64,000 bases of DNA from an uncultured Gammaproteobacteria bacterium. GTDB lineage: Bacteria; Patescibacteriota; Microgenomatia; Levybacterales; UBA12049. Numbering within the stretch: the stretch's first letter is position 1; each line of letters begins with the position of its first letter. Positions 16,473 through 54,106 of this stretch are shown here, piece by piece. The notes under the pieces were generated by a model. That model ran no database searches and was not told the DNA's origin. It saw only the letters and a program-made list of their open reading frames with translations. Position numbers and translations under genes: made by a program. The DNA is taken from contig CAZCCG010000002.1 of NCBI GenBank assembly GCA_964497535.1, positions 234,972-298,971 of the forward strand. The letters run 5' to 3'.

Positions 16473-17276
16473 TTACGGAAGGTTAACTTTGAAGTTCAGC
16501 TCGGGATCATATTTCCATTTCCTGTTATTTTTATCATCATAGTAATGTAAGATACGAAGACGATAAAACACTGCCATTGTATCCCATAACATATGGAAAA
16601 TAGTATTCCAAAACCCTTTTTGGGTAATTGATGAGACGCCTGAGAAATCAAGCTCAACAGGTGCTTCAAAGATACGATTATATCCCAGATAATTTGACAC
16701 TGCCAGTATTTCTATATCAAATGCATATGTTTTTACCAGAAGTCGAGGTGATACATCTTCCAGAACCTTTCTTCTAAAAAATTTCATTCCAACCTGTGTA
16801 TCGCGAATTGATAATCCAAATAAGACTCGTACTAAAAATCGATATCCCCATGATAGAATTTTACGAGTAATTGGATACTGGACTTTTGAAACAGGATGAA
16901 GCTTACTGCCGACAATAATATCGGCATTATACCATTCAAAATGCTCCAAAAGCATTGAAAGTCCATTGGGATTAATATCCATACCAGCATCAATGAATGC
17001 GACAATATCTCCTTTGGAACGTGCCATCCCAAAACGAACCGCATGCCCTTTCCCATGATTATGAGGATATCCAGTTACCAGAATATTAGGTGCTTTTACT
17101 TTTTTAGCGTTTTTTTCTGTATTATCCAGCTCTCCATCTACAACAACAATAATTTCATACGGATAGCGCATTTGATCCATAACATCTTTGATACGAGTAA
17201 GATCTTTTTCAATGGTTTTTTCTTGTTTATAAACGGGGATTATAAGCGAGACAAGACGAGGATTTTTTTCGTTCAT
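16473..17276 (-). CDS. GT2 polyprenyl-phosphate glycosyltransferase-like (DPM1/GtrB/ArnC type).
   Basis: LVSLIIPVYKQEKTIEKDL...YEIIVVVDGELDNTE. 267 aa. Confidence 0.8.
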   Translation of the reverse strand: MNEKNPRLVSLIIPVYKQEKTIEKDLTRIKDVMDQMRYPYEIIVVVDGELDNTEKNAKKVKAPNILVTGYPHNHGKGHAVRFGMARSKGDIVAFIDAGMDINPNGLSMLLEHFEWYNADIIVGSKLHPVSKVQYPITRKILSWGYRFLVRVLFGLSIRDTQVGMKFFRRKVLEDVSPRLLVKTYAFDIEILAVSNYLGYNRIFEAPVELDFSGVSSITQKGFWNTIFHMLWDTMAVFYRLRILHYYDDKNNRKWKYDPELNFKVNLP

Positions 17277-18532
17277 TTTATTTTTTTTGTGCCGATCTTC
17301 CCAACAGCATAAGGGTAGTATAACAAAAGTGTTAAAAGAAGTAAAAATGTAATAACCGTGTTTATGGTGATTAGTTGAATAATAGTACTGTGGAATAAAT
17401 AAATGCCTATGATTTGAGTTATTGCAGCAACAGCAACGATATACATTATAAAAGTTTTATGAATTGATAGAAAAAAATTAGCCAGGAGATAACTGAGAGA
17501 ATACAGTGCTATAAATATCCCAAATATCCCCAGATAGGGAACAATCTGTATATATCCTTGTCCAAAAAGTAAGTGTACCATCAAGCTTGGGAAGAGGAAA
17601 TAAATGAGAAGGACACAAGCGGAAGCCGCAAAAGTAAGGCCAAAACTAATAAAAAGAAAATGAGAATAACGCTGCCCTCTGGCATGGTGTTCTGATACAA
17701 AAGGGAACATAACCAGCATGATAGGTGATACACCAAAGAAAATAATCTTTCCAAGTACGGACAATGCTGCATAGTCACCAGCATTGGAAGCAGGAAGAAA
17801 GTGCCTTGCGAGTATTACATCGGTGGTTATTAACGAAGTTATTGAAAGGGTTGTTATAAATGCTGGAATACTAAAATGAAAAATTTGTTTATGCTGCGTA
17901 AATCCTTTATCATGCAGATGTAACTTGTTAATAAAATATAAAGCAATAAGGTATCCAATGAAAGCTCCAATTGTTACCGCTCCAAACGCGCCTTCTACTT
18001 TGTAGCCTAGGAAAATGAGACAAATAGCAAGTAATAACTTGCTAAAGGTTTCTATTAAGTTAGTTACTGAAAAACCAAAAAAATCAGATATTCCCTGGAG
18101 AACACTTTTATTCAGTATCGACAATAATCCTACAAAAAAGTTAACTACTAATAACAGAACCAATATTGGAGATGACAAATGGAGAAAAGAGGAAATGAAA
18201 GGAGAAAAAAGAAAAAGCACACCACTTGTAATACCTCCAACTATAATTATTTTGGTTCTGAGGAAATGATACATCTTTGATATTCCTGAAATATCACTTT
18301 TCCCTTTATAATCTGATACGAATTTTACTATGATTATAGTAAGTGTCATCATTGGAATTGAGAAGATATAAAGCAAAGATATAAGGCTTTCCAATTCTCC
18401 ATATCCACTTTTCCCAAGCATTCTTCCGGTAACCACATGGTAGAGATAGTTACCAATGTTGAGAAACCCTGTGCCGACAAACATCCAAAAGCTTGCCCGA
18501 ATAAACTTGAATTGCAATATTTTTTTGATCAT
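17273..18532 (-). CDS. Oligosaccharide/polysaccharide flippase (Wzx-like, MOP superfamily).
   Basis: 419 aa, about 12 TM. N-terminus FIRASFWMFVGTGFLNIGNYLYHVVTGRMLGKSGYGELESL typical of PST-family flippases. Confidence 0.7.
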   Translation of the reverse strand: MIKKILQFKFIRASFWMFVGTGFLNIGNYLYHVVTGRMLGKSGYGELESLISLLYIFSIPMMTLTIIIVKFVSDYKGKSDISGISKMYHFLRTKIIIVGGITSGVLFLFSPFISSFLHLSSPILVLLLVVNFFVGLLSILNKSVLQGISDFFGFSVTNLIETFSKLLLAICLIFLGYKVEGAFGAVTIGAFIGYLIALYFINKLHLHDKGFTQHKQIFHFSIPAFITTLSITSLITTDVILARHFLPASNAGDYAALSVLGKIIFFGVSPIMLVMFPFVSEHHARGQRYSHFLFISFGLTFAASACVLLIYFLFPSLMVHLLFGQGYIQIVPYLGIFGIFIALYSLSYLLANFFLSIHKTFIMYIVAVAAITQIIGIYLFHSTIIQLITINTVITFLLLLTLLLYYPYAVGKIGTKKIK

Positions 18533-21766: not shown

Positions 21767-22345
21767 TTATTTCGCACAAAAATAAGCAGTCGTACCCAAA
21801 GCTGTCACATAATAAAGGACAGCAATAATAACTGTACCCAAAAGTGTAAGAACAACAACGCGTGTATTTTTTTTCTGGAGAAAATTCCACCACCCATAGG
21901 CAGATATGATAAGAAAGACACCCGTAAGTACTACTCTGGAAAACATATACGAAGCATTGGGAAATAACACTATAACTATCGGTAAAAGAACAATTGCGGT
22001 AAAACTAAATTTAATAGTATTTCTTTTCTCCTGGAGGATGTACCAAAAGGCAAATAAAATACCTACCAGTCCTAGAATTGAGACTAAATCTATAATAAGT
22101 CTAAAATCCCATAACAATATATATTTCTTTATAAGGTCGCTGACCCCAAGAGTAAGTTTATTATGAAAAAAGCGAATAATAACAAAAGGGACACCTTCAT
22201 CATTGTGAATAACATCATCAAGCTGAAGCGCTAGATCAGAGAAAGAGAATGGAGTAATAAATTTAAAATTGCTACAAGCTTTCCACAAAAATTGTGAAAG
22301 CAGCTCAAAACATATAATAAAGGGAATAAATATCTTTTTATTCAT
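21767..22345 (-). CDS. Small membrane protein (about 192 aa; N-terminal soluble segment plus 3-4 TM), function unknown.
   Basis: ORF inside the operon. Start placed at MNKKIF, which gives an 8-nt ATGAATAA overlap with the upstream gene's stop. The track's longer start, 22366, is also possible. Confidence 0.5.
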   Translation of the reverse strand: MNKKIFIPFIICFELLSQFLWKACSNFKFITPFSFSDLALQLDDVIHNDEGVPFVIIRFFHNKLTLGVSDLIKKYILLWDFRLIIDLVSILGLVGILFAFWYILQEKRNTIKFSFTAIVLLPIVIVLFPNASYMFSRVVLTGVFLIISAYGWWNFLQKKNTRVVVLTLLGTVIIAVLYYVTALGTTAYFCAK

Positions 22346-23900
22346 AGAGCGTCCAGAATTTAGCAAATGGGTCTTTATTCAAATTCTTGAAATAAACCGT
22401 ATCTATAAGTTTTCCATGGGCTCGGATTGCCGCATTTCGGACCCATAATATCTGTTTTTTATCCAAATTCATGGGAGGTACCCATGTGATCGATACATAT
22501 TCAGGATGGATAGTTTCATCATAGAATTTAACATAAATATCAGAATCTCCCAATGATTGATCAATAACAATGTATTTATATTTATTTTTATACTGTCCAA
22601 TTTTTTGTATTGTTTCTTTATACCCTGCCCCCCAATCCAGACTGTTATTCTTGGGGTAATGGATATAATAAAAATGAAAGTATGACAATACTTCATACAC
22701 AGCACATAACAAAAAGCATACTATTAAGATTTTTCTGATTTTTCCTTTTGACAAAAAGAAAAGATACATCATTGAACAGGATACAAAGATAGTACACGGA
22801 ATAACTGCAAGCAGAAAACGAAGAGAATGAGGACTTGGCTGAGCCAGCGAACCCGGCACAGCAGCAAGAAATAAGAGATAGAAAAGAAGAATACTGTTCT
22901 TATTTGAATTTTTAAGACATACGTAGATTCCAAAAATAAGGAATGGCAATTCCCATATATAGAGCAGCCCAAAATTTGGTATCTGATGTCTCCCAATCCC
23001 GTCTCCCGATATAAATAAAAATTGCATAGAATAGAACGAAATAAAGTTTTTGACATAGACAGCGGGATATACTGTTAGCTTTCGGGTTGTAGATATCTTT
23101 TGATGCTGCGTAAAAGTTGAAGTCTGAGAAAAACGTCGTTGTCCAGCATCGGTAAGACTAAACTGAATCATTGGTAGTGACAGTACAAATGCAATAATAA
23201 ATACAAAAAGAACATTTTTCCATTGTCTCTCCTGCCAAAAAAGGTATCCCATCATATAAAAAAGCGTGAATGGAGTAATAACTCGATATGCAAAATAAGC
23301 GTACATAGCAAGTATCACAAAAAATACTGAGAAAAAAAGAATTGCTATATTTTTACGCTCGGCAAAATATAAGAAAAAGGTTAATCCTACCAGAAAGAAA
23401 AATAATGCAAGCGTTGCCTCAAATCCTCCCCGTGAAAATTGTAAATGCCATGGAGTAATGCTCAAGACAAATGAACTAAGTAACGCCACATATTCTTTCT
23501 TCTGGGTAAGAATATTTTTCTTTTTACCTTTTTTTGTAGACAATAATTTTTCTACAAAAAAGTATAAAGCCAATACCGTTAAAGATCCTGCTATGGCAGA
23601 GGGTAGTCGTACAGCAACTTCAGTTTTGCCAAATACCTTCATAGAAGCCGCAACAGAATAGATATAAAGGGGTAATTTATACTCTCCGAACGCCTTAAAG
23701 AATACCGGATGAGGAACTGAATATTCATCTTTCCCGGTAGTAAGAACTTTGTAGGCATTATATCCAATAGATGCCTCATCAAGATATAATCCGGGAGGAT
23801 TTACGTCAATTTTATAAATACGAAGAAACCCGGCTAACAAAACGATTAGCAATAACAAAATGTACCGATAATGAATAATCTTATTACTTATTTCGTACAT
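22338..23900 (-). CDS. GT39/PMT-like (COG1807, ArnT/PMT family) GT-C glycosyltransferase, paralog 1.
   Basis: First-loop signature LYLDEASIGYNAYKVLTTGKDEYSVPHPVFFKAFGEYKLPLYIY...GKTEVAVRLPSAIAGSL (DE motif, KPPLY-like, RLPSA). 520 aa, multi-TM. Confidence 0.8.
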   Translation of the reverse strand: MYEISNKIIHYRYILLLLIVLLAGFLRIYKIDVNPPGLYLDEASIGYNAYKVLTTGKDEYSVPHPVFFKAFGEYKLPLYIYSVAASMKVFGKTEVAVRLPSAIAGSLTVLALYFFVEKLLSTKKGKKKNILTQKKEYVALLSSFVLSITPWHLQFSRGGFEATLALFFFLVGLTFFLYFAERKNIAILFFSVFFVILAMYAYFAYRVITPFTLFYMMGYLFWQERQWKNVLFVFIIAFVLSLPMIQFSLTDAGQRRFSQTSTFTQHQKISTTRKLTVYPAVYVKNFISFYSMQFLFISGDGIGRHQIPNFGLLYIWELPFLIFGIYVCLKNSNKNSILLFYLLFLAAVPGSLAQPSPHSLRFLLAVIPCTIFVSCSMMYLFFLSKGKIRKILIVCFLLCAVYEVLSYFHFYYIHYPKNNSLDWGAGYKETIQKIGQYKNKYKYIVIDQSLGDSDIYVKFYDETIHPEYVSITWVPPMNLDKKQILWVRNAAIRAHGKLIDTVYFKNLNKDPFAKFWTLYE

Positions 23901-24645
23901 ATTTGATATAACTTACAGGAAACCGCAGTCCTGAGAAAAAAGCGAAAATAAAACCTTGCCAGCCGTCCATAAAACCTTTATGCCTGAAATAAATCAAGAA
24001 AAACCACCAGAACGGCGATACCAGTAAATAGCTGAAGAATGTACCCACATGTATCGTAGGCTCTTTCTCGGCAAGTTGCCGTGCCATAAGACTGGTATAT
24101 CGTTGCCATCTCAGAACATAGCGGGAAAAACTCGGATCTGCAATATGTATTAAAGGATTTTTTAAGTACCCTACTTTACCATCAACAATTGCCTGTTCGT
24201 GAACATCTTTTTGTGGCAATCGTCCTTTCCCCTTCTTATATAACCTGAGGGTATAATCCGGATACTGTCCCCCTTTCATCAAAAATCTTCCAAGGAACCA
24301 ATTTTTACGCGGCATCCAATATCCATTTATCTTTGCATCAGGATGAGCAAGAATATGCTCAATTTCTTTCCCAAGCTCTCTTGATACTCTCTCATCCGCG
24401 TCAAGCTGCAAAATCCAATCAGACATTGCCATATCAATAGCTTTTTGTTTGTTGATATGAAATACGGGAGGGTTATCAGTTATGACAACTTTTGCTCCGT
24501 ATTTTTTGGCAATCTCAACAGTTTTATCGGTTGAAGTCCCATCAACAATTACTATTTCTTTGGCAATATCTTTAATAGAATCCAAACAAACGGGTAGATT
24601 TTTCTCCTCGTTAAATGTGGCCAGCACTACTGATACAGTTTGCAT
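23884..24645 (-). CDS. Glycosyltransferase family 2 (paralog of 39568-40320).
   Basis: VSVVLATFNEEKNLPVCLDSI...IVIVDGTSTDKTVEIA...DADERV. Confidence 0.85.
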   Translation of the reverse strand: MQTVSVVLATFNEEKNLPVCLDSIKDIAKEIVIVDGTSTDKTVEIAKKYGAKVVITDNPPVFHINKQKAIDMAMSDWILQLDADERVSRELGKEIEHILAHPDAKINGYWMPRKNWFLGRFLMKGGQYPDYTLRLYKKGKGRLPQKDVHEQAIVDGKVGYLKNPLIHIADPSFSRYVLRWQRYTSLMARQLAEKEPTIHVGTFFSYLLVSPFWWFFLIYFRHKGFMDGWQGFIFAFFSGLRFPVSYIKYVRNK

Positions 24646-24665: not shown

Positions 24666-26171
24666 TTATCGACCTTGTCTTTTTTCAACAGTAATATTTC
24701 CGGTAAATACTTTATCCCATGTTACAGTTCCTGTTTTAATTACTGTTTCTTTCCATCCTTTTGGAGCTAATGGACGCTCGGGATCAGGTTCGATTATGAG
24801 ATAGAACAATCCATCTTTACTTTTTCCCGGGACATAATTATACATTCGTGTGCCTGCCCACCAAAACAAATATTGATATGCATAATCATATACGGGAGGC
24901 GTATATACGAATACGCTAAACGGCTTTCCTTTTGCATCTTTATAAAGATAATTGATAACATTCATTTCATTTTTAAATATTCCGGTTCCCTGGTCATCAT
25001 ACACTGGAAATGTATGATATGAATTAATGGTAATTACTGCCCACAAAATAAGGAATAGAAAAACACTAGCCTTGAGGAATATATGGAGTCGGGCAATTTG
25101 AGATAACGAATACGCAACAAAAAAGTAATAAGAGACTTGGATGCCTATCCAATACCAAGCCCATGCAGGTCGAGGGAAAAAAATGAATAAGCTATAGTAC
25201 AAAACAGGAGCGATTAAAAACAGAATAAGAATTCTCAAATGGTCTGTTTGTTTTTTTACAATAGTATATGCAGTGTATAAAACACCACTTATCAGAAAAA
25301 GATATGCAATCAATTGATTGTTGGATAAGGCAAATACTGTTGCCCGCAAAACCTCATCCAACCGAAGACTCAACCGTATATTGAAAGGAATAACCGCCCC
25401 CAGACTCTGATTTTTACCTTCAAATAAAGCAACAATTGATTGTGTCATAAGAAACTGATGACGAAGATCAAATAATACTTGTGGAAGAAATAGTACTCCA
25501 TATACGACTCCTCCAATATAAAACCACTTATTCAAAAATGCTTTTCGATCCAAAATCAGGTAGGATACTACCAGAACTGGAAGCATCCATAACCCGTCTG
25601 CAACCTCAAGCTGAGCCATCAGTCCTGCAAAAAACCAAGTGGCAACAAGATATTTTTTATTACCATATATACTTTTGTAAAGAGATATATAGAACAATAT
25701 CATAAGAAATGGAATCCAATGAGGATTCCAAAAATGCTGAGAAAAAGCAATAGAAGCAGGCGCGATAGCAAAAAAAAGTGCTGCAATAATGCCAAATTGC
25801 CGGCTAGCAATTTGTTTACCAAACATATAACAGATAATAACCCCCACTACTCCTAACAGCGCCATAAATACGGTTCCTGAAGCAGGATGGCCATTCCCAA
25901 TGATTGAGGCAATTGCAAGAAGATAATAATGATAGGGACCTTGGAAAACTCCCTGGATACCGGTAAATGGTCCAATGAGTGTTGGTTTATGATCCACAAT
26001 AATTTTATTGACATCTAGAAGATCTCTACCGTGATCAAAAAGGAATGGAAAATTTCCGGTAACAATTGGGGTAAAACGCACTACTGCTGTCAGGATAACC
26101 AATACTAACACAAGGAGATAATCAACCTTATGATTTTTAATTTCTTTTTGGATATGTTTAAATAATTTCAT
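24666..26171 (-). CDS. 'Family B' polytopic membrane protein, paralog 1. Probable divergent GT-C glycosyltransferase, unassigned family.
   Basis: 501 aa, about 12 TM. N-terminal loop FDHGRDLLDVNKIIVDHKPTLIGPFTGIQGVFQGPYHYY is shared with 29469-30956 and 32689-34182. Confidence 0.6.
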   Translation of the reverse strand: MKLFKHIQKEIKNHKVDYLLVLVLVILTAVVRFTPIVTGNFPFLFDHGRDLLDVNKIIVDHKPTLIGPFTGIQGVFQGPYHYYLLAIASIIGNGHPASGTVFMALLGVVGVIICYMFGKQIASRQFGIIAALFFAIAPASIAFSQHFWNPHWIPFLMILFYISLYKSIYGNKKYLVATWFFAGLMAQLEVADGLWMLPVLVVSYLILDRKAFLNKWFYIGGVVYGVLFLPQVLFDLRHQFLMTQSIVALFEGKNQSLGAVIPFNIRLSLRLDEVLRATVFALSNNQLIAYLFLISGVLYTAYTIVKKQTDHLRILILFLIAPVLYYSLFIFFPRPAWAWYWIGIQVSYYFFVAYSLSQIARLHIFLKASVFLFLILWAVITINSYHTFPVYDDQGTGIFKNEMNVINYLYKDAKGKPFSVFVYTPPVYDYAYQYLFWWAGTRMYNYVPGKSKDGLFYLIIEPDPERPLAPKGWKETVIKTGTVTWDKVFTGNITVEKRQGR

Positions 26172-26207: not shown

Positions 26208-27851
26208 TTACTTTCCAGGTGCAATGACCATAGCAGGTTTACCATTCAAATAATTTATTATTTCTACCGACATAACGTCTTTGGGAAATTCATCAACACT
26301 TCCTACATACAGAGTGTCCTTTTGTGAATCTGCATAGTTAAATGCTTTAAATTCATACTTTGAGAAGGAGTGATTTGATCGTTGTTCCTGTTGATATTTC
26401 AAAGGAGGATATTTAAGATAATAGAGAAAAAAGATATATGATTGATCCAATGGCTGTTTATCCGAGATTATAATATGATTGTATTTGCCTTGGATATTGT
26501 TTACCTGACCAACCACCTGTTGATATCCATACTGCCAGTCCTGTGAGCTAAAGTAATTATACTGGACAAAATATTGCAACATATAATAGATTATATTCCC
26601 TACAATGAGAGTAACGAAAACTGCTCCGATACCTTTTACCACCACTGCTTGCTTCCCTGTGCTTTCTTTTACCCATAGTGCAGTTTGGAATGCTCCCAAA
26701 GCTATAAGAATTTGTACCATGGGAAGAAAATTAAGAACTCTCACGGCATTGGGTACATCCCAGGTTACAGATGAAGCAATTGGGGTAATAAGAATCCAGC
26801 CGAATATGATATATTTTGTCTTCCTATCTACCGTTATAAAAAGCAGCATATATATCCCGATCAAAAGGAAGGGTAATTCAAATAAATAGAGATGGCCCAT
26901 AAAAGGCGGTTGATGTCTTCCAGTCTTATCCCCTACGATAAATAACCAATTTGGGTCAAAGTGGGATAAGTAGTTTCCAATAATAACGGGGATATAAGAA
27001 AGTTTTTGGCTACTGAGTATTTCTCCGATACCATTGCCTTCCTGTTTATTTATAACCTGACGTTTAGCTATCCGCTCAATTGTTGCATTTGGATTATTAA
27101 AAATACTTACTCCTGCAGCTCTTGAAAAAGCATTGGGATTTGAAATAACAAAAAGAAGCATTGGAAGAAGAATAATAATTCCCGACAAAATAACGAATCC
27201 GAGCGTTTTATGGGAGACTTTCAACAATTGTTTCCCATATAGATACAAAAGCAGAACTCCAACAAGAGGAATGAAAATCTTTTCACTCTGATATGCATAA
27301 ATACTGAGTGCAAAAAATATGATAGACGGCAAAAGGAAAACAGATCGCTTGAGACCTTTGAGAAAAAATAGTAATCCAAAAACATTTAAAGATAATCCAA
27401 TATTAGATTCAAATGCCACACGGCTAAACTGAATATGCCAGGGAGATAGGGCCAAAAATAGAGCACTGAACAAAGCCAGAACTTCCCCACGTTTGTATTG
27501 TTTTAAAGGAAATAATTCCTTTACCAAAAAATATGTTGCCAAAACAGTCAAAATGCCAAAGATTGCAGACGGTAAACGTACAGCAGTTGTCGTAAGCCCC
27601 AGTATTTGGACGAAGGGTATTGCTAAATAGGTATATAAAGCAGGTTTGTAATCTCCAAAGGAACGCAAGACTACCGGTAAAAAGGTTCCGTATTCATCTT
27701 TTCCCGTCTGGCTGATTGAATAAGCGTTGTATCCCAGCGATACTTCATCCCAATCAGGAGATATAGGTATGCTACCCAATTGATAGAACCTCAAAATTGC
27801 AGCTATTACAAGAATACATCCCAGAAATAGAACGGTTACCTTTTTATTCAT
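26208..27851 (-). CDS. GT39/PMT-like GT-C glycosyltransferase, paralog 2.
   Basis: PDWDEVSLGYNAYSISQTGKDEYGTFLPVVLRSFGDYKPALYTY...TTAVRLPSAIFGIL. 547 aa. Confidence 0.8.
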   Translation of the reverse strand: MNKKVTVLFLGCILVIAAILRFYQLGSIPISPDWDEVSLGYNAYSISQTGKDEYGTFLPVVLRSFGDYKPALYTYLAIPFVQILGLTTTAVRLPSAIFGILTVLATYFLVKELFPLKQYKRGEVLALFSALFLALSPWHIQFSRVAFESNIGLSLNVFGLLFFLKGLKRSVFLLPSIIFFALSIYAYQSEKIFIPLVGVLLLYLYGKQLLKVSHKTLGFVILSGIIILLPMLLFVISNPNAFSRAAGVSIFNNPNATIERIAKRQVINKQEGNGIGEILSSQKLSYIPVIIGNYLSHFDPNWLFIVGDKTGRHQPPFMGHLYLFELPFLLIGIYMLLFITVDRKTKYIIFGWILITPIASSVTWDVPNAVRVLNFLPMVQILIALGAFQTALWVKESTGKQAVVVKGIGAVFVTLIVGNIIYYMLQYFVQYNYFSSQDWQYGYQQVVGQVNNIQGKYNHIIISDKQPLDQSYIFFLYYLKYPPLKYQQEQRSNHSFSKYEFKAFNYADSQKDTLYVGSVDEFPKDVMSVEIINYLNGKPAMVIAPGK

Positions 27852-29472
27852 ATATTATAAGGGTATCTCTTTCATTTTTTAGATCAATTGATTTACGTAT
27901 GTTAACTCCTGCCGATTGTTTGCCTTTTAAATCAACATAGAGATTTTTTCCTGATATTGGAGATGGACTAGAATCAAGGAAATGATACTTCCCTACTTGT
28001 GATACGGTGACGAATCCATAGGTATCGCGCGTTACTTTGGAATCATTCCTCAAGGTTTGAGGATTTAACTTAAGATAAAATAAATAATAGATATAGGGTC
28101 TGCCTAAATAGGAAGAGATATAAATGGTGCGATATTCTCCCTGAACTTTCTGTACATACGCAATTGCTTGTTTGTATCCATATTGCCACTCGGATGCGTA
28201 CTCATTACTATAGTACGTATAATAGTTATACAAAAAATAAAAAACATTTACTGCTAATATCACTCCTATAATCCCACGTATAACTGTTACTTTCTTTTTT
28301 GGAAGCCACGCGGACAATGTATATACCCCATAGGCTATCAGTATTTGGAACATTGGTACTGTTGCCTCTGTACGAAGTGCGTGGGGAGTTTCACGAGCTG
28401 TGGCAGCCGGTATTATACCGATTACAATCCAGATAGGAATCAACCACCAATATCCTTCCCTTTTTCTAAAAAGAACTAGTATGCCGATAAGAAGAAAGGG
28501 TAAATCCCACAGATATAACTGCCCAATATCTTGTGTAGAGAATTTTGGATTCATATCCCCATGAATAAAAAGATAGGTGGGATTGAAATGGTCGAAATAA
28601 TGTTTGAGATATTCAATTGAATATTGTAATCGTCTGTTATAAATAATTTTCGAGTACAATGAATTATTGTCATTTTGTATCTCCTGATTGCTGCGTTCTA
28701 TTACATCAAGATTTGAAAAAATATTAACTTCACGGAATCTTAAGCTTGCTTGTGGAGAAAGGAGAAACCTTACAGTAGGAGCAATAACAATCAACCCCAG
28801 TAAAGCAGCGACTATCACTTGTTTTTTCATAAACCATAATTTTTTATAAAAACCTATTGTCAAAACAAGAAGAAGTATCGGTACGACAATACGAGGAGTA
28901 TTAAAAGTGTAGAGAGATAAAACAAAAAAGAGTGCTGAAATTACGATACTCCATTTGTACCCATTGATGCTTCTCAAAAAAAGCCAGACGCCAGTTACTA
29001 TAAGAAATGTTGCGATATTCGCTTCAAAAGCAGCACGGGATAACATAATATGCCAGGGAGACAATGCTAATATTCCCGCTGCAATCAACCCTAGATATTT
29101 CCGTTTTCTTTTTTCTATCTTTGGGAATAACTCCTGCATGAGGAAAAATGTAATCAAAACTGTTAACGTACCAAAAAACGCTGAAGGAAATCGTACGGCA
29201 AATTCTGTCAAACCAAACAACTTAATAGGAATAATATCCAGATACGCATACACCGGCGGTTTAAAATCACCAAACGATTCCAAATAATCATACGGCAGAA
29301 ATCGGCCAAACTCATCTTTTCCATCAATTCCTAACGTATATGCGTTATATCCCCAGGCAACCTCATCCCAGGTAAGAGAAGGAGGTATCGATCCTAATTG
29401 ATAGAACCGGAGCAACCCTGCAACCAAAACAATACCAATCAAAATCCACTTTATTTTGTCCATATAATTCAT
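27844..29472 (-). CDS. GT39/PMT-like GT-C glycosyltransferase, paralog 3.
   Basis: LTWDEVAWGYNAYTLGIDGKDEFGRFLPYDYLESFGDFKPPVYAY...FAVRFPSAFFGTL. 542 aa. Confidence 0.8.
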   Translation of the reverse strand: MNYMDKIKWILIGIVLVAGLLRFYQLGSIPPSLTWDEVAWGYNAYTLGIDGKDEFGRFLPYDYLESFGDFKPPVYAYLDIIPIKLFGLTEFAVRFPSAFFGTLTVLITFFLMQELFPKIEKRKRKYLGLIAAGILALSPWHIMLSRAAFEANIATFLIVTGVWLFLRSINGYKWSIVISALFFVLSLYTFNTPRIVVPILLLVLTIGFYKKLWFMKKQVIVAALLGLIVIAPTVRFLLSPQASLRFREVNIFSNLDVIERSNQEIQNDNNSLYSKIIYNRRLQYSIEYLKHYFDHFNPTYLFIHGDMNPKFSTQDIGQLYLWDLPFLLIGILVLFRKREGYWWLIPIWIVIGIIPAATARETPHALRTEATVPMFQILIAYGVYTLSAWLPKKKVTVIRGIIGVILAVNVFYFLYNYYTYYSNEYASEWQYGYKQAIAYVQKVQGEYRTIYISSYLGRPYIYYLFYLKLNPQTLRNDSKVTRDTYGFVTVSQVGKYHFLDSSPSPISGKNLYVDLKGKQSAGVNIRKSIDLKNERDTLIIYE

Positions 29473-30956
29473 TTTTTATACCAATTCTGTCCTGAATTAT
29501 AAATTCCTTGAGGCGTTACAGACACCCACTTCTCTTTTTTCAAATTTGGGGGAAGCTTTTGCATATCAATCAACAAAAAACCTCCTTCATATCCCGGTAT
29601 GAGATATTGTTGGAATCTCCCTTTCTCAGAAAGGTCAGCATACCCTACCGCAAATCCTTTATCATTTATCTTGTTTGCTGCATCCAAATATAGTGATAAT
29701 GCCTGACTGTATGCGGAAGTATGAAATTGATAGTCATATATTGAGAACTTTTTGCCGGGATATTTCTTTAGTAAAAACTGCATTTGGGAGTCTGCTTGCT
29801 GGGGATTTACATTAAATGTATCTTTTGATATCTCACCACTATCTCTATATATACTTAGAATTATTATGAAGAGAAACAGCAGAATTCCTATAATTTTTTT
29901 CCACTGATATAGATAAAAAATAACCCAAGCGGTAATAAGAAGTATAAAGACATGAAGGAACACATAAAAGCTATCAAAAAGAGGTGTACGAGTGTATCGT
30001 AGAATTATAAACATAACAGGAACGCTGGTAAAAATAATCAGCCATTCTTTCTCTAGTTTCTTTTTATAAGAAGCATATCCGATAACCAAAATCGAAAGAG
30101 GAAATAATACATAACCCAATGGTAAAAAGCCTCCGATAATTGCCGACCAGGCAGTTGGGATAAATATGCCTATGAAGTTTTTCCAATTCCTACCCAATAC
30201 CTCAAAAGACGCTTTATTTTTCTCAAAAAAGTAATAATAAATCATATTATGGGTATTTTGGAAATTTCTTCCACTGTCTGAATAAAAAACAGGTGTCCAT
30301 GGTAACAAAAGTCCTACTCCTGCCAATAATAATCCCTTTATGCCGGGAAATTGGAAGATAATAATAGCCAAAAGCAACGGCATCAGTGCGATTCCTTGTA
30401 AATGAATCGAAGATGCAATCCCAATACTTAATGCTATGAAGAAAAAGTAACGCAGTTTTTTTGTTTTGATATATAAAACCATACAAAATACTGCAATAAA
30501 CGCAAACAAACTAATCGGCGATTGATTAGATAAATTCGCGGCTTGTGTAATTTGCGCAGTTGAAACTGCAGATAACCCTCCAAGAAGTAGTCCAAATGTT
30601 TTTCCTTTTAATTGAACTCCTAATAGAATCATTCCCACAATAAATAAAACATAGATACCAGTCAGAAATACCCACGGTGCAACTACCCATCCCATATTCC
30701 AAAATGCTCCAGTCATGACAAACCAATACCATTCTCCCCCGGTTTGAAACGGTCCGGCAGAAGAAAAGGGACCTAACAGGGGTAATTGAAATGACTCCAA
30801 AGCATATCGAGCCTCCAAAGCAAAATGAGCTTGATCTCCTCCCAAAACCCATCTATTACTATAGTTGTAAAAACGAAATAATAACCCTAAAAGGGTAATG
30901 ATAAAAGAGCAGAGGAAAAACCAATGTTTTTTAACACGTTTCAAAATCATATCCAT
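29469..30956 (-). CDS. 'Family B' polytopic membrane protein, paralog 2.
   Basis: 495 aa. LGGDQAHFALEARYALESFQLPLLGPFSSAGPFQTGGEWYW aligns with the loop of paralogs 1 and 3. 4-nt overlap with the downstream GT39 paralog. Confidence 0.6.
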   Translation of the reverse strand: MDMILKRVKKHWFFLCSFIITLLGLLFRFYNYSNRWVLGGDQAHFALEARYALESFQLPLLGPFSSAGPFQTGGEWYWFVMTGAFWNMGWVVAPWVFLTGIYVLFIVGMILLGVQLKGKTFGLLLGGLSAVSTAQITQAANLSNQSPISLFAFIAVFCMVLYIKTKKLRYFFFIALSIGIASSIHLQGIALMPLLLAIIIFQFPGIKGLLLAGVGLLLPWTPVFYSDSGRNFQNTHNMIYYYFFEKNKASFEVLGRNWKNFIGIFIPTAWSAIIGGFLPLGYVLFPLSILVIGYASYKKKLEKEWLIIFTSVPVMFIILRYTRTPLFDSFYVFLHVFILLITAWVIFYLYQWKKIIGILLFLFIIILSIYRDSGEISKDTFNVNPQQADSQMQFLLKKYPGKKFSIYDYQFHTSAYSQALSLYLDAANKINDKGFAVGYADLSEKGRFQQYLIPGYEGGFLLIDMQKLPPNLKKEKWVSVTPQGIYNSGQNWYKK

Positions 30957-31008: not shown

Positions 31009-32688
31009 TTGAAAATTATGAGAAGGTCGATTATTGTTGTTCTATTAATTACCATTACCCTTCTAGCGGCACTTCTCAGATTCCCCGCTCTGGATAAAAT
31101 TCCTTCAGGATTTGCGATTGACGAAGCTGCTTTTGGCTATAATGCCTATTCGATCTTAAAAACAGGCAGAGATGAATATGGAATACCATTCCCTCTCAAT
31201 CTAAAATCATTCGGAGATTACAAAGCTGCCGGCTATGCTTATTTTGCGATTCCGGCAATTGCGATTTTTGGCCTTAGTGAATTTACAACTCGTCTTCCCT
31301 CAGCAATCTTTGGAACGCTCTTTGTATGGGTAGTTTATTTCCTTACTAAAAAACTGACCAAAGATATAAAGATATCCCTGATTGCTGCTGCTCTTACAGC
31401 AATCTGTCCTTCTCTTATTTTTCTCTCACGGATTCAAAGTGACCCACTGGTATCAGCATTTTTTGTGGTGCTAGGCATTTATTTACTATTACTATGGAAG
31501 GACAATAAGAACATATTTTTCTTTCTGCTATCTTTCTTCTCTTTTTTGATAAGTATGCTTACCTATCAGTCACCTCGAATTTTTGTTCCGCTTTTTCTTG
31601 TGGCATTTTTCTTGGTTTATCGGACATCGCTCTCAAAAAAACAGGTACTTTTCTCTCTGGGTGGATTTATAGGCTTAGGAATACTCATAGCCTTTCTTAT
31701 GTTCTCCGGCGGAGCACGGTATAAGCAAGTCAGCGTATTTTCTCAACCTGAGATCCGTTTGGTGCTTGAAGAAGAACTTCGGGAAGATGCAACCACCAAA
31801 CCGATTATTACACGCCTGTTCCATAATAAACCGATTGAATATGGAAGATATCTTGTTGAGAACTTTTTCAGGCATCTAGATTTTGACTTTCTTTTTTATC
31901 AAGCAAATTCCCCCATCCGGGAACGTGTTCCCAATACTGGAGTACTATATCTTATCGATTTACCTTTTCTAATATATGGTGCTTATTTAATACTTCATAA
32001 AAAGGTACGATGGGGATATATCCTTTTGGTATGGATTTTGCTACAAGCATTTTCCCTGTCTTTCACCTTTGACGAATCACCCAACATCCATCGTTTTATA
32101 GCGGCAACCATTCCTCTTGAAATAATTATAGCTTTTGGTATTACCCGATTTCTTCAGAATTTCAAAAAAAGGCCATTTCTCCATATGGGACTCCTGGTTC
32201 TTATTCCCTTTCTCTATTTCTATAGCGTTATTTATTATTTCCATGAGCTCATCGTACACCAACCGGTTCATCAACCATGGTTTAGAAATTCTGCCTATAA
32301 AGAGATGGTTACAGAAATCAATGAAAAATACGATACATCCAAAAAATTTATTATCACCAATACGGAATCAAATCCCTATATGTTTATATTGTTCTACAAT
32401 AAATATGATCCAAGAAAGTATCAAGAGTCCGGCTCTAATGGTAACGAAAACTACAAAGGTTTTGATAAATATGTTTTTGTCCCTCTGAATTGTCCGCTCT
32501 ATAGTGGTAATTCTATAGACCCAGCCACGGGAGATCCGGAAATAGTGTATATCGAACGAGGAAATTGTAATAATCCTCCAAATGTGAAAATTACCTATCT
32601 TAGATGGGGAGATAAATCATCAGCCTTTAAAATGATGAAACTTATTCCAACAGCACCACAACCAACCACTTCAACCAACCAAGAATAA
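31009..32688 (+). CDS. GT39/PMT-like GT-C glycosyltransferase, paralog 4 (plus strand).
   Basis: FAIDEAAFGYNAYSILKTGRDEYGIPFPLNLKSFGDYKAAGYAY...FTTRLPSAIFGTL. 559 aa. Confidence 0.8.
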   Translation: MKIMRRSIIVVLLITITLLAALLRFPALDKIPSGFAIDEAAFGYNAYSILKTGRDEYGIPFPLNLKSFGDYKAAGYAYFAIPAIAIFGLSEFTTRLPSAIFGTLFVWVVYFLTKKLTKDIKISLIAAALTAICPSLIFLSRIQSDPLVSAFFVVLGIYLLLLWKDNKNIFFFLLSFFSFLISMLTYQSPRIFVPLFLVAFFLVYRTSLSKKQVLFSLGGFIGLGILIAFLMFSGGARYKQVSVFSQPEIRLVLEEELREDATTKPIITRLFHNKPIEYGRYLVENFFRHLDFDFLFYQANSPIRERVPNTGVLYLIDLPFLIYGAYLILHKKVRWGYILLVWILLQAFSLSFTFDESPNIHRFIAATIPLEIIIAFGITRFLQNFKKRPFLHMGLLVLIPFLYFYSVIYYFHELIVHQPVHQPWFRNSAYKEMVTEINEKYDTSKKFIITNTESNPYMFILFYNKYDPRKYQESGSNGNENYKGFDKYVFVPLNCPLYSGNSIDPATGDPEIVYIERGNCNNPPNVKITYLRWGDKSSAFKMMKLIPTAPQPTTSTNQE

Positions 32689-34182
32689 TTATCGTACCAT
32701 CAGGTGTCTTACTTCCAGGATTCCATAGGAAAAGGATGACGTTGTTTTTCCCCACCTACTAACTGTTTTTTCAAGCCATTCTTTTTGATATAAAGGACTA
32801 CTGGTATCTTTTTGAATAATAACAAAGAGCATATTTGCTCCCTGGACAGGGGTCTTTTTATGATCCTCCGTTGCGGTATGCCAGAATAAATATTCCCAAG
32901 CCTGCTGTGACCAATAAGGAATTGTATAGGACTGTATATCAAATGGTTTTCCATTAGACTCTGCAAAGATTCTTTTTATTACAAATTGTTGATCCCGATA
33001 ATATAAATCAGGTTGAGCAGCTTGAAATGTTACGTGTCGGTTCGTCAGTATACTGCTTTTCCAAAATAGAACTTGTGATAACAATAGAAAAGATAAAATA
33101 AGATATCCCAATACATAATTTCTACCGATAAGATATGAAATAAAGTATGCAATAAGTACTATATATGCACCCGCTGACATCAGAAATAAATGTTCAAGTG
33201 AATCATGTCTCAAACCGATCAAAACTAAAAGGGGCGTAAATAGCCATAAATAGAGAAGCACTCCTTTATCCGTTTTTTTGTATTTTCTTATAAAAATCAC
33301 CAGACTTAACACCAACAAGATAAATGCTATTACAAAACTATTTGGATATACAAAATAAGACCATATCACAAAAAACGTCTCCAGTGCTTTCATAGCTGCC
33401 TGAGGGTAAGATAAATAAAATCCTGACTTACCACCTGCTAGTGCCAATAAACTATTTGTAATAAGCCATTGATGACGAAGATCAAACAAAAGAAAATTCA
33501 TTACAGAAGAAATAAGAGCAATAGCAACAGAACTTAGAAGAATTAATTTTGGCGTTGATAACAACCGTTGCCGATAGATAATTATAAGGAGCAAAATAAA
33601 TCCTCCATAAAAAAGAAAGTTAATAAATTCTGCTTGGCCAAGCATTCCAAAGGTTATAGCAACCAGTAATAAGTATTTTTTATTGCCTTGTAAAAATCGC
33701 CAGGTAAATAATGCAAAGAGAATCCCAAGAGGCATGGATAACGGAGGATTGGATAACCATCTGGCGTATACAATGGCACCCCAGGAAAAGGAGAATAAGA
33801 CCGCGGCAAGTATCCCAACGGTTTTACCAAACATCTCTTTTCCCAAAAAGTATAAAGCAATTAAAGAAAGTGATTGAATTGCTATAAAAAAGGCTGAAAC
33901 AACCAATGGGTCTCCCCTACTGATCAAAAATGGTATAGCTGCAACATAGTAAAATAACGGTCCGTGAAATACTCCTTCGATATCGGTTTTAGAACCGATA
34001 AGAGTCATCTTGTGATTTTGAACAATGTCTCGGATAACCAGAAAATCCCTTCCTTGCTCAGGACCAAAAAAAAGATTTGAAGGCATCACATAAAATCTTA
34101 GAAAAAAAGCCAGGATAACAAAAATCCCAAGTAAAACTGCTGCAGGTAAAATAAGCGTTCTCTTTTTTAATTTTTCATTCAT
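32689..34182 (-). CDS. 'Family B' polytopic membrane protein, paralog 3.
   Basis: 497 aa. FFGPEQGRDFLVIRDIVQNHKMTLIGSKTDIEGVFHGPLFYY. Its stop codon directly abuts the stop of the convergent GT39 paralog 4. Confidence 0.6.
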   Translation of the reverse strand: MNEKLKKRTLILPAAVLLGIFVILAFFLRFYVMPSNLFFGPEQGRDFLVIRDIVQNHKMTLIGSKTDIEGVFHGPLFYYVAAIPFLISRGDPLVVSAFFIAIQSLSLIALYFLGKEMFGKTVGILAAVLFSFSWGAIVYARWLSNPPLSMPLGILFALFTWRFLQGNKKYLLLVAITFGMLGQAEFINFLFYGGFILLLIIIYRQRLLSTPKLILLSSVAIALISSVMNFLLFDLRHQWLITNSLLALAGGKSGFYLSYPQAAMKALETFFVIWSYFVYPNSFVIAFILLVLSLVIFIRKYKKTDKGVLLYLWLFTPLLVLIGLRHDSLEHLFLMSAGAYIVLIAYFISYLIGRNYVLGYLILSFLLLSQVLFWKSSILTNRHVTFQAAQPDLYYRDQQFVIKRIFAESNGKPFDIQSYTIPYWSQQAWEYLFWHTATEDHKKTPVQGANMLFVIIQKDTSSPLYQKEWLEKTVSRWGKTTSSFSYGILEVRHLMVR

Positions 34183-34183
34183 A

Positions 34184-34906
34184 TTATGAGAAACGCAAAG
34201 TTAAAATTGTTTTCAGGGAATCAATACCATCCCGAACAGTATGCAGTTTTTTCCCTTCTGCATGATCCCGAGGTATAGTTCTAATAGGTAATTCGACTAT
34301 TTTATATCCTTTTTTTATCAGCTTTATTGTTATCTCAGGGTCGGTACTGAATCCATTTGCCGCAAGCTTTTCGTTTTTAAATACAATGGTCGGGAAAATC
34401 TTATAACAAGTATTCATATCTGTTATCCATTGTCCGTACAGCATACTTGTAATAAGACTCAATGCTCTATTTCCAAAATAATGCAGGAAAAAGAGTGGTT
34501 TTTTTTCATCTTTTGACAAATTCGGAAGGCGATTTAAACGAGTACCATATACTACGTATGCGGTACCATCTTTTATTGGTTTCAAAAGAATTGGTAAATA
34601 AGAAGGACTATATTCCAAATCAGCATCTTGTATTACACAATAATCACCGGTAGCATTTTCAATTGCCGTACGAAGAGCAGCCCCTTTTCCTTGGTTTTTT
34701 TTATGCTGAATAAATGTAATATGTGATTTATCCTTAGATGTTTTGAGATAGGATAAAATCTTTTCAGCCGTAGCATCTGTTGAACCATCATCTACCAAAA
34801 CGGTTTCTTTCTCAAATCCAGGCAACTTTACTTCAGATACTCTTTTGATAACTTCAATGACAGTTTTTTCCTCATTAAAAACCGGTATAAGAATTGATAA
34901 TTTCAT
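34184..34906 (-). CDS. GT2 polyprenyl-phosphate glycosyltransferase-like (GtrB/ArnC/CsbB type).
   Basis: KLSILIPVFNEEKTVIEVIKRV...VLVDDGSTDATAEKI. 240 aa. Confidence 0.85.
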   Translation of the reverse strand: MKLSILIPVFNEEKTVIEVIKRVSEVKLPGFEKETVLVDDGSTDATAEKILSYLKTSKDKSHITFIQHKKNQGKGAALRTAIENATGDYCVIQDADLEYSPSYLPILLKPIKDGTAYVVYGTRLNRLPNLSKDEKKPLFFLHYFGNRALSLITSMLYGQWITDMNTCYKIFPTIVFKNEKLAANGFSTDPEITIKLIKKGYKIVELPIRTIPRDHAEGKKLHTVRDGIDSLKTILTLRFS

Positions 34907-35859: not shown

Positions 35860-35861
35860 AG

Positions 35862-54015: not shown

Positions 54016-54078
54016 AATTATACTAAAAATACCCGTGCGTTACAAACGGCAGAGATACCTATCGCCTTGTGATTGAAG

Positions 54079-54099
54079 CTGTATTGAGGTAAAATACAG
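54079..54099. other. Perfect 7-bp stem / 7-nt loop hairpin (CTGTATT-gaggtaa-AATACAG) immediately 5' of the tRNA-fragment element.
   Basis: Inverted repeat read directly from sequence. Confidence 0.4.
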
Positions 54100-54106
54100 A
54101 GGCCAC

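Follow-up and report, generated by a model that had tools for sequence, protein, structure and literature searches.

Three genes in the 64-kb stretch of DNA analysed here (the window), designated B1, B2 and B3, very probably represent three anciently separated subfamilies within a large family of ArnT/PMT-like (PMT_2) GT-C glycosyltransferases that is still uncharacterised, and are most likely active enzymes. All three open reading frames exist at the coordinates given in the earlier note and lie on the minus strand, and translation recovers the loop peptides quoted there:

24666-26171, minus strand: B1, 501 aa, predicted family-B GT-C glycosyltransferase of the B1 subfamily (open reading frame, Pfam, structure model)
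29469-30956, minus strand: B2, 495 aa, divergent family-B paralog with its own subfamily (open reading frame, subfamily profile)
32689-34182, minus strand: B3, 497 aa, family-B paralog of the B3 subfamily (open reading frame, PMT_2, HMM of B1 orthologs)

The three proteins have a membrane domain in common. B1 and B3 are 29% identical across 476 aa (BLASTP, E 2e-41), and an HMM made from B1 orthologs alone retrieves B3 at full length (E 7e-61). By the same sequence measures, B2 is far more distant from B1 than B3 is: BLASTP finds no match between B1 and B2, aligns B2 with B3 at 25% identity over 132 aa (E 2e-4), and the B1-ortholog HMM reaches B2 at E 5e-6. Two independently built profiles, one for B1 orthologs and one for the B2 subfamily, nonetheless align over 367 columns (hhalign 99.3%, E 2.3e-20), with the loop motifs in the register proposed in the earlier note. 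As judged by BLASTP, HMM and hhalign, the similarity of the three, including the loop after the first membrane helix, is far above chance, and the shared loop claimed earlier is thereby borne out. The 12 membrane helices originally proposed give way to an estimate of about 11 for B1, with the N-terminus inside and the C-terminus outside, from the helices of the AlphaFold2 model read together with the positive-inside rule.

Pfam assigns B1 and B3 to PMT_2 (PF13231; 36.0 and 37.8 bits, respectively, against a gathering cut-off of 26.1), and the same domain matches 38 of 49 family-B members at E<=1e-3. B2 itself has no Pfam match; its subfamily numbers 217 matches at E<=1e-3, and among the 120 of these that were listed, roughly half have a PF13231 assignment computed beforehand. 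The AlphaFold2 model of B1 (pLDDT 94.5, pTM 0.92) has the polytopic membrane fold of solved enzymes of the GT-C superfamily (Pfam clan CL0111). Its best Foldseek match in the PDB is ArnT (5f15, E 5.9e-7, TM 0.56), and the best 37 matches, with E values up to 0.05, are exclusively GT-C enzymes; behind ArnT stand AglB/PglB/STT3, ALG12/ALG9, Pmt4, Emb and AftA, of which the AglB/PglB matches span the shared GT-C core only. Family B is also homologous to a second set of genes in the window, the GT39-like family A, whose alignment shows the DE motif:

22338-23900, minus strand: fourth family-A gene, downstream of B1 in the same operon
26208-27851, minus strand: family-A GT39-like GT-C (PMT_2/PMT), separated from B1 by a 36-nt gap
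27844-29472, minus strand: family-A GT39-like GT-C (PMT_2/PMT), overlapping B2 by 4 nt
31009-32688, plus strand: GT39-like gene of family A, opposite in direction to its neighbours and abutting B3 tail-to-tail

The profile alignment of families A and B (hhalign 97.9%, E 3.4e-13) covers B1 residues 15-237, which on our reading of the model run from TM1 to the outer end of TM7. Searches of PDB chain sequences returned nothing for the family-B profile at E<=10 and nothing for the family-A profile at E<=1; the link to characterised enzymes therefore rests on Pfam, profile-profile and fold comparison rather than on residue-level alignment to the ArnT or PMT structures.

More specific memberships were not obtained. 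The PMT domain PF02366 has no match in B1-B3 at E<=1, although two family-A neighbours do match it, and Pfam finds neither MIR nor PMT_4TMC domains in the three proteins; B1-B3 consequently fall outside PMT/CAZy GT39 in the strict sense of PF02366 with an Asp-Glu motif in loop 1 and, at the C-terminal side, a lumenal MIR domain plus PMT_4TMC as in eukaryotic PMTs or PMT_4TMC by itself as in bacterial ones. The ArnT equivalog model NF009784 (cut-off 567 bits) does not match B1-B3 at E<=1, its one weak match (16 bits) being to the family-A gene at 31009-32688. Membership of STT3 was considered and rejected (TIGR04154, 14.5 bits for B1 and 17.8 bits for B3 against a cut-off of 450), as were the NCBIfam Agl23 and archaeal STT3 models, with scores far under threshold. 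The family had been described from the letters as not assignable by eye, which holds for the eye; standard profiles do assign it, and the NCBI and JGI pipelines already name relatives "glycosyltransferase family 39 protein", "ArnT family glycosyltransferase" or ArnT-like. The suggestion of an undescribed GT-C subfamily proved essentially right as to fold and superfamily, given the PMT_2 matches, the profile homology to family A and the Foldseek search of an AlphaFold model, a check proposed at the outset, which returned GT-C enzymes only, with ArnT the best. Family B is most likely a branch of the known GT-C class rather than a new kind of protein. It appears to have no characterised member, and the literature on CPR GT-C or GT39 expansions yielded nothing specific to it.

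Family B comprises 3,429 clusters at 50% identity (E<=1e-30), and the best 150 of these are nearly all full-length, at about 500 aa. All members that bear organism names are from CPR/Patescibacteria. A pattern scan of a genome collection, derived from a narrower alignment, found four loci, two of them in MAGs labelled 'uncultured Gammaproteobacteria', a label taken as given. Many other assemblies encode separate orthologs of B1, of B2 and of B3, with identities of 40-78%. Family B divides into three old subfamilies with differing C-terminal domains. The domain of B1 is the following:

24669-25004, minus strand: C-terminal extracytoplasmic alpha/beta domain of B1, residues 390-501 (AlphaFold2 domain model, pLDDT 90.5)

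This domain of about 110 aa is specific to the B1 and B3 subfamilies, with no profile match in family A or the B2 subfamily; modelled alone, it finds no fold match in the PDB by Foldseek at E<=1e-3, the domain of ArnT included.

The conserved positions of family B, evaluated across 199 diverse members, lie mainly in the first extracytoplasmic loop and at the outer end of TM7:

25923-26045, minus strand: first extracytoplasmic loop of B1, residues 43-83, translating to FLFDHGRDLLDVNKIIVDHKPTLIGPFTGIQGVFQGPYHYY
26034-26036, minus strand: codon of B1 D46, the proposed catalytic base (translation, conservation, family-A alignment)
25458-25472, minus strand: B1 motif F234-D-L-R237-H238 at the outer end of TM7 (translation; consensus F-[DE]-x-R-H-x-F)

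The loop carries the signature F-x-x-D46-[QH]-G-R49-D50 ... L65-I-G67-P ... G74-x-F76-[HYQ]-G-P79 ... Y83. Position 46 is acidic in all 199 members (197 Asp, 2 Glu), and the model places D46 at the N-terminal end of H45-58, the first helix in the loop, so that B1 possesses the conserved acid of GT-C enzymes, in the first extracytoplasmic loop and just ahead of its first helix; the corresponding residues of B1, B2 and B3 are D, D and E. In the structures compared in PMC7801869, the first Asp of this loop is the one residue common to all GT-C enzymes (ArnT D55/E56, Pmt1 D77/E78, EmbA D281/D282), and in the PMT of M. tuberculosis an essential residue, D74, lies upstream of the first loop helix (PMC12331936). 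The hhalign comparison with family A places D46 opposite the D of the DE motif and H47 opposite the E, a position held by Q, H, V or N in family B (consensus D-[QHVN]-G-R-D). The reported lack of a DE motif is accordingly half correct: the Asp is retained, invariant as an acid, and the Glu is replaced. Position 77 aligns with the Lys of the family-A 'KPP' motif and is H in 81, Y in 44 and Q in 41 of the 199, K never being among the common residues. We tentatively equate this Lys, through PMC7801869 and by position rather than by direct alignment, with ArnT K85, which lies near the start of the second loop-1 helix and touches the donor phosphate (PMC7801869). Loss of the DE Glu and of the KPP-aligned Lys could signify altered donor handling or, less likely, lost activity.

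Other positions are similarly constrained: G48 (172/199), R49 (170/199), D50 (180/199), F234 (195/199), D/E235 (194/199), R/K237 (191/199), H238 (166/199) and Y340 (174/199). On the predicted 11-helix topology D46, G48, R49, D50, F234-H238 and Y340 all face outward, and alignment and topology together suggest that D46 and the other motifs may share one pocket, in which F234-D-L-R237-H238 is a candidate contact for the donor phosphate or sugar. The B2 loop reads D41-Q42-A-H ... L-L-G-P-F-S-S ... G-G-E-W-Y-W, with D41 and Q42 invariant in its subfamily and R49/D50 missing. The 'FG...(K/R)' stretch that had been likened to loop 1 belongs elsewhere, in the TM2-TM3 region seen by PMT_2, which the predicted topology puts on the cytoplasmic side.

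The gene neighbourhood offers a candidate donor synthase for B3, together with other glycosylation genes:

34184-34906, minus strand: DPM1/GtrB/ArnC-like GT2, 240 aa, 1 nt upstream of B3
34903-35859, minus strand: GT2 (Pfam), upstream conserved block
35862-38165, minus strand: YfhO-type GT-C (Pfam), upstream conserved block
38162-39232, minus strand: GT4 (Pfam), upstream conserved block
23884-24645, minus strand: GT2, GmaR/SunS-like, downstream of B1 in the same operon
17273-18532, minus strand: MOP/Wzx-type flippase candidate (Pfam Polysacc_synt, 56.7 bits), same minus-strand gene string

The best PDB sequence matches of the GT2 at 34184-34906 are ArnC, the P. furiosus dolichol-phosphate-mannose synthase (5mlz) and GtrB (5ekp), and its top NCBIfam matches include AglJ (the best), ArnC, dolichyl-phosphate hexose transferase and PpgS. 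We propose it as the synthase of a polyprenyl-phosphate-sugar donor for B3; on our reading of its 240 residues it would have no membrane anchor. Its orthologs directly precede those of B3 in loci L028, L029 and L030, where the GT4, YfhO and GT2 genes also keep the order they have in the window; within this upstream block (34903-39232) genes overlap by 4 nt or stand 1-2 nt apart. The conserved block in other genomes reads GT4-YfhO-GT2-GT2 (DPM1/GtrB-like)-B3-(B2)-A-A, and conservation of the block with family B extends over several lineages. The order B2-A-A recurs in L028, and the family-A genes that follow B3 in L029 and L030 are co-directional with it. A GT2 of the GtrB/DPM1/ArnC type is found beside B3 but not beside B1, whose adjoining GT2 looks more like a protein glycosyltransferase of the GmaR/SunS type than like a synthase acting on a lipid carrier, and no GT2 adjoins B2. 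In L013, L018 and L022, too, family-B genes are flanked by DPM-like GT2 genes. A polyprenyl-phosphate-sugar synthase working with a flippase and a GT-C enzyme is an established scheme (PMC11127046). Among the window's open reading frames of at least 100 aa that were scanned there is no GtrA-family flippase, the candidates being of the MOP type; the one at 17273-18532 may take part in the family-B pathway, and a second MOP-type protein is encoded at 44768-46225. The window holds at least 13 GT-C-type genes, and most of its 64 kb is given to surface glycosylation.

For the catalysis, donor, acceptor and order of action of family B, we infer the following scheme. A cytoplasmic GT2 of the DPM1/GtrB/ArnC type (34184-34906 in the case of B3) would load a sugar onto polyprenyl phosphate, the lipid-linked sugar would be flipped to the outer face of the membrane, and there the family-B enzyme would pass it to a cell-surface acceptor. 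The invariant Asp of loop 1 (D46 in B1) would act as the base that activates the acceptor, with the donor held by the outward residues R49/D50, H/Y/Q at position 77, F-[DE]-x-R-H after TM7, and W337/Y340. The subfamily-specific C-terminal domain probably picks the acceptor, and the A and B paralogs of the conserved gene string most likely would act sequentially, or at different positions, on the same surface glycan or glycoprotein.

The close association of the two families also invites the explanation, raised in the earlier note, that family-B proteins are non-catalytic or regulatory partners, that is, pseudo-enzyme subunits, of the GT39-like family-A enzymes encoded beside them. There is a 4-nt overlap between B2 and the family-A gene that follows it, family-A genes immediately adjoin family-B genes in the window and in L003, L006, L008, L011, L017, L020, L026, L027 and L028-L030, the DE Glu and the KPP-aligned Lys have been lost, and PMTs and Emb proteins are known to work as dimers (PMC7759382; PDB titles). 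Nevertheless, every one of the 199 members keeps the acid at the catalytic position, and several further polar motifs that face outward hardly vary, whereas a pseudo-enzyme would be expected to relax such positions. In addition, the 13-kb loci L014 and L018 hold several family-B genes and lack family-A genes across the 6 kb flanking them on each side, the conserved partner of B3 orthologs is a GT2 resembling a donor synthase and not a family-A gene, and each subfamily has its own C-terminal domain. We therefore consider an accessory role very unlikely; a family-A and a family-B protein might nonetheless pair as active enzymes, in the manner of Pmt1-Pmt2 or EmbA-EmbB. The position of B1-B3 among four family-A paralogs with which they have an N-terminal module in common might also suggest drifted, recent local duplicates of a family-A GT39 gene, the family being an artefact of a fast-evolving locus. 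This idea is rejected, with hardly any probability left to it, because each paralog has orthologs elsewhere, at 40-78% identity in many assemblies and also in syntenic positions; the mere 29% identity of B1 and B3, the failure of BLASTP to detect B1-B2 similarity and the thousands of 50%-identity clusters likewise oppose it.

A narrower question is whether the family-B enzymes carry out protein O-glycosylation as PMTs strictly defined do, modifying Ser/Thr on secreted proteins, for example pilins or S-layer proteins. This would be a sub-case of the preferred reading as active GT-C enzymes, with the acceptor alone differing. The Pfam match is to PMT_2, the nearest homologs in the window bear the PMT DE motif, and GmaR/SunS-like protein glycosyltransferases are encoded close by. 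Set against these observations are the lack of PF02366 (E<=1), MIR and PMT_4TMC in B1-B3, the lipid acceptor used by the best structural neighbour, ArnT, and a gene block with YfhO, GT4, GT2 and MOP flippase genes that is typical of polysaccharide or teichoic-acid-type assembly. We regard a strict PMT function as possible, if somewhat unlikely.

CPR/Patescibacteria are tiny, mostly uncultured bacteria that live fixed to other microbes, and next to nothing is known of their surface chemistry. Family B most likely decorates the cell surface, and its definition provides concrete targets for studying how CPR build the surface with which they contact their hosts: signature motifs, three subfamilies, a subfamily-specific C-terminal domain and conserved partner genes. 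No new principle is involved, as the fold, likely chemistry and neighbourhood logic are those of known GT-C systems. A more ambitious and unlikely reading is that a conserved extracytoplasmic assembly line, specific to CPR, is made up of family B together with family A and YfhO. Its many GT-C enzymes would use lipid-linked monosaccharides to build a surface glycopolymer or glycoprotein coat not described so far, and family B would found a CAZy family of its own, one whose donor-binding site is altered. The replacement of DE and KPP by D-[QH]-G-R-D and F-[HYQ]-G-P could then point to different donor chemistry or metal independence; mycobacterial arabinan and mannan synthesis would be the analogy for such a line.

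Compared with known systems, B1 most resembles its best structural match, ArnT (undecaprenyl-phosphate-L-Ara4N:lipid A transferase, GT83; 5ezm/5f15), in its multi-helix membrane domain with a cytoplasmic N-terminus, in the two helices of the first outer loop with an Asp just ahead of the first, in a small outward-facing C-terminal domain and in size (about 500-550 aa), and automatic annotation calls some family-B relatives 'ArnT family' or 'ArnT-like'. The two differ in that identity is only 12-13%, that ArnT has 13 membrane helices (PMC7801869) against the approximately 11 estimated for B1, and that ArnT D55/E56 and K85 (PMC7801869) would be represented in family B by D-[QH] and [HYQ], as aligned through family A; the surroundings of B1-B3 yielded no genes of an Ara4N pathway, leaving aside the DegT-type aminotransferases of the window. 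With PMT (GT39; PF02366, PF13231), family B has in common the PMT_2 domain, homology to the window's family-A genes over B1 residues 15-237 with the catalytic Asp in register, and fold matches to the Pmt4 and Pmt1/Pmt2 structures, whereas DE has become D-[QHVN]-G-R-D and profile comparison finds no relationship between its C-terminal domain and the one in family A. Like the GtrB/GtrA/Gtr*, CsbB/GtcA/YfhO, ArnC/ArnEF/ArnT and GT136 systems, B3 has a conserved GtrB/DPM1/ArnC-like GT2 directly upstream, and its operon also encodes a YfhO-type GT-C with its own GT2. In contrast to GtrB/GtrA-type systems, the flippase candidates among the scanned open reading frames are of the MOP type, with none of the GtrA type. 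Finally, whereas synthase-flippase-GT-C systems have one GT-C each, the window strings together at least seven GT-C genes that point the same way, and is in this respect closer in spirit to the many-GT-C assembly of mycobacterial arabinan and mannan.

The three family-B ORFs described in an earlier note, and the loop peptides quoted from them, are present in the window as follows:

24666-26171, minus strand, B1, ORF of 501 aa
29469-30956, minus strand, B2, ORF of 495 aa
32689-34182, minus strand, B3, ORF of 497 aa

The N-terminal outer loop common to the three translates in B1 (window:25923-26045:-) as FLFDHGRDLLDVNKIIVDHKPTLIGPFTGIQGVFQGPYHYY. B1 and B3 are clear paralogs (BLASTP, E 2e-41 over 476 aa at 29% identity), and an HMM of B1 orthologs alone matches B3 over its full length (E 7e-61). 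B2 is far more distant than these two are from each other: BLASTP found no match to B1 and only 132 aa to B3 (E 2e-4), and the B1-ortholog HMM reached its membrane part only (E 5e-6). Independent profiles of B1 orthologs and B2 relatives align in hhalign with a probability of 99.3% (E 2.3e-20, 367 columns), with the loop motifs in the register earlier drawn among the paralogs (FLFDHGRD...TLIGPFTG.QGVFQ versus LGGDQAHF...PLLGPFSS.AGPFQ). The B1/B3 matches and this profile alignment therefore show that the loop likeness reflects real homology and not chance. B1, B2 and B3 are the only strong members that a family-B HMM finds in the window. Recent local duplication is refuted as their origin; each has orthologs in syntenic positions elsewhere, and they therefore represent three old subfamilies.

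The earlier note had called family B not assignable by eye, and possibly an undescribed subfamily of the GT-C membrane glycosyltransferases. The Pfam profile PMT_2 (PF13231, cut-off 26.1 bits) does assign B1 (36.0 bits) and B3 (37.8 bits), and matches 38/49 aligned family-B members; B2 has no PMT_2 match. The AlphaFold2 model of B1 from the family alignment was very confident (pLDDT 94.5, pTM 0.92), and the best 37 matches in a Foldseek comparison with the PDB (E up to 0.05) were all GT-C glycosyltransferases, headed by ArnT (5f15, E 5.9e-7, TM 0.56) and followed by AglB, PglB, STT3, ALG12/ALG9, Pmt4, EmbA/B/C and AftA. Comparison of the family-B profile with PDB chains by sequence found none, and NCBIfam matches were far below threshold. 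By profile match and predicted fold, family B belongs to the GT-C superfamily and Pfam PMT_2, as the earlier note had supposed for the former.

Scanned in full with HMMER, 1.84 billion representatives yielded 3,429 family-B clusters at E<=1e-30, the best 150 of which are almost all full-length (~500 aa). Public pipelines name relatives "glycosyltransferase family 39 protein", "ArnT family glycosyltransferase" or "4-amino-4-deoxy-L-arabinose transferase-like", and many are still "hypothetical protein". Organism-named relatives are CPR/Patescibacteria (Saccharimonadales, Levybacteria, Roizmanbacteria, Gottesmanbacteria, Microgenomates), apart from one unclassified 'bacterium' label and two MAGs labelled 'uncultured Gammaproteobacteria'. 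Clear B1 orthologs occur in two MAGs titled 'uncultured Gammaproteobacteria bacterium' (loci L004/L006 and L002/L007), one on a 1.57-Mb contig; either these MAGs are mislabelled or family B extends beyond CPR.

Family A, the GT39-like GT-C genes beside B1-B3, carries a DE motif a short way past TM1 (as in LTWDEVAWGYNAY):

22338-23900, family A
26208-27851, family A
27844-29472, family A
31009-32688, plus strand, family A

Profile-profile alignment of families B and A (probability 97.9%, E 3.4e-13) spans B1 residues 15-237, which on our reading of the model would begin with TM1 and extend to the outer end of TM7. In it, B1 D46 falls on the DE Asp and H47 on the Glu; D41 of the B2 subfamily likewise pairs with the Asp.

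Residues at B1 positions 46-50 in 199 diverse family-B proteins
Position 46: D 197, E 2
Position 47: Q 99, H 35, V 29, N 10; Glu outside the five commonest
Position 48: G 172
Position 49: R 170
Position 50: D 180

Position 46 is acidic in all 199 proteins, so the earlier description of family B as lacking the DE motif is only half right: the Glu is replaced, but the Asp, which matters most in DE, is kept. One comparative study reports at least the first Asp of the motif in every GT-C structure that it compared (ArnT D55/E56, Pmt1 D77/E78, EmbA D281/D282; PMC7801869), and in M. tuberculosis PMT the essential residue D74 precedes the first loop helix (PMC12331936); in the AlphaFold2 model of B1, that helix comprises residues 45-58, with D46 at its start. 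B1 position 77, paired in the alignment with the Lys of the family-A 'KPP', is occupied in family B by H, Y or Q and never commonly by K. It directly precedes the second loop helix and may correspond to the location at which ArnT K85 contacts the donor phosphate (PMC7801869).

In the family-B alignment, F234-[DE]235-x-R237-H238-x-F240 is near-invariant at the outer end of TM7, as are W337/Y340 in the loop after TM9. Read as membrane segments, the helices of the B1 model leave short cytoplasmic loops that are all Lys/Arg-rich; B1 would thereby have 11 membrane helices rather than the 12 first counted, with its N-terminus inside, its C-terminal domain outside and all conserved polar motifs on the outer face. 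Residues ~390-501 form a small alpha/beta domain, confident when modelled alone (pLDDT 90.5), in which F418, P425, Y434, W438, E461 and W473 are strongly conserved in the B1 and B3 subfamilies. Comparison with PDB folds gave no significant neighbour (best E 0.03, TM 0.3-0.4), and profile comparison linked the B1/B3 domain neither to the C-terminal part of family A nor to that of the B2 subfamily. The subfamilies therefore share a catalytic membrane module and differ in their outer domains, a pattern that would be expected if the C-terminal domain selects the acceptor.

The window is a glycosylation island, with at least 13 GT-C-type genes (four of family A, three of family B, YfhO, a PIG-V-like gene, and others that match PMT_2 or PTPS_related), numerous genes for GT2 and GT4 proteins, enzymes that modify sugar nucleotides and two MOP flippases. 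Between 39232 and 13508 almost every gene lies on the minus strand, and neighbours overlap by 4 nt or leave tiny gaps; B3 ends the following string:

38162-39232, GT4, first gene
35862-38165, YfhO, second gene
34903-35859, GT2, third gene
34184-34906, DPM-like GT2, directly before B3

Among solved structures, the DPM-like GT2 best matches ArnC, an archaeal dolichol-phosphate-mannose synthase and GtrB; its top NCBIfam matches include several glycosyltransferases of the polyprenyl- or dolichyl-phosphate kind, namely AglJ (best), ArnC, dolichyl-P hexose transferase and PpgS. The order continues B3, A (inverted), B2, A, A, B1, GT2, A. A Levybacteria genome (L028) has GT4, YfhO, GT2, (DUF2079), DPM-like GT2, B3, B2, A, A, A, two other assemblies (L029, L030) have DPM-like GT2, B3, A, A, GT2, B1-like, after preceding genes, and in 20 further metagenomic loci family B is typically flanked by family A, more family B or DPM-like GT2. 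The inverted family-A gene (31009-32688, plus) is the sole plus-strand gene at ~13.5-39.2 kb and lies tail-to-tail with B3 (32689-34182, minus) at zero spacing; equivalent genes are co-directional with B3 in L029/L030, which suggests a local inversion in the window. In L014, L015, L016, L020 and L024, the family-B gene is followed on its own strand by an ORF of 552-589 aa that the A, B and DPM HMMs match little or not at all, possibly another conserved GT-C family of these arrays.

Two GT2 proteins of ~250 aa (23884-24645 and 39568-40320, both minus) best match GmaR/SunS-type protein glycosyltransferases, not lipid-carrier synthases, which hints that cytoplasmic protein or peptide glycosylation is encoded in the same island. 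The 710-aa product of 58878-61010 (minus) has a PMT-like GT-C N-terminus (106-245), MecA_N (402-510) and PBP_dimer (522-681), with no transpeptidase domain in Pfam; to our knowledge, a GT-C joined to a penicillin-binding-protein pedestal is unusual. In L006, a 689-aa PBP_dimer protein adjoins the B1 ortholog. Five large ORFs (1384-3600, 12010-13503, 40322-41875, 41872-43827 and 52018-53229; 403-738 aa) have no Pfam match at E<=0.01 and could encode additional membrane glycosyltransferases, likewise divergent, or polymerases. Paralogous large membrane proteins (46973-48790 and 48700-50430, both minus; 27% identity, E 1e-53), one matching PTPS_related and PMT_2, overlap by 91 nt as listed, so the downstream ORF probably starts later. 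The ~1.95 kb at 54016-55968 has no ORF >=100 aa, only a tRNA (54428-54500), and GC is 0.43 at 56000-60000 versus ~0.35 elsewhere in the window.

The fold, homology, motif conservation and synteny observed for family B best support a model in which its activity and donor class would follow the standard GT-C scheme (PMC11127046). Specifically, a polyprenyl-phosphate sugar would be made by a cytoplasmic GT2, flipped across the membrane to its outer face and moved by the family-B enzyme onto an acceptor at the cell surface; D46 would be the base and outward-facing residues, each motif in its presumed role, would hold the donor. That A and B paralogs, YfhO and several GT2 genes form an array suggests that one surface polymer or glycoprotein is decorated step by step or in a position-specific manner. 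The earlier note had alternatively suggested that family B could be an accessory subunit of the family-A GT39 enzymes, a role favoured by the adjacency of B and A genes and the loss of Glu and Lys. However, the acid at the catalytic position is conserved in every member (199/199), further outer-face motifs are conserved too, two loci (L014, L018) carry several B genes with no A gene within 6 kb, and B3 is coupled to a donor-synthase-like GT2, leaving that role very improbable; a heteromer of two active enzymes, A and B, is possible.

Protein O-glycosylation of the strict PMT type, which departs from the GT-C model in the acceptor alone, is a more tenable but still doubtful reading. Family B differs from strict PMT/GT39 in having no PF02366, MIR or PMT_4TMC match in Pfam and no Glu. 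Family B also differs from ArnT/GT83 in its loop residues and in having no equivalog match, and it did not pass the test for STT3 membership. It would work like ArnT or PMT, and we regard family B as an uncharacterised ArnT/PMT-like GT-C subfamily, apparently CPR-restricted, with the loop-1 signature F-x-x-D-[QH]-G-R-D ... L-I-G-P ... G-x-F-[HYQ]-G-P, the motif F-[DE]-x-R-H-x-F after TM7 and a C-terminal domain private to it. For a specialist this brings no surprise, but as an annotation it is sound, and it gives work on CPR surface biology a useful handle; if characterised, family B might become its own CAZy family, for which GT136 is the precedent (PMC11127046).
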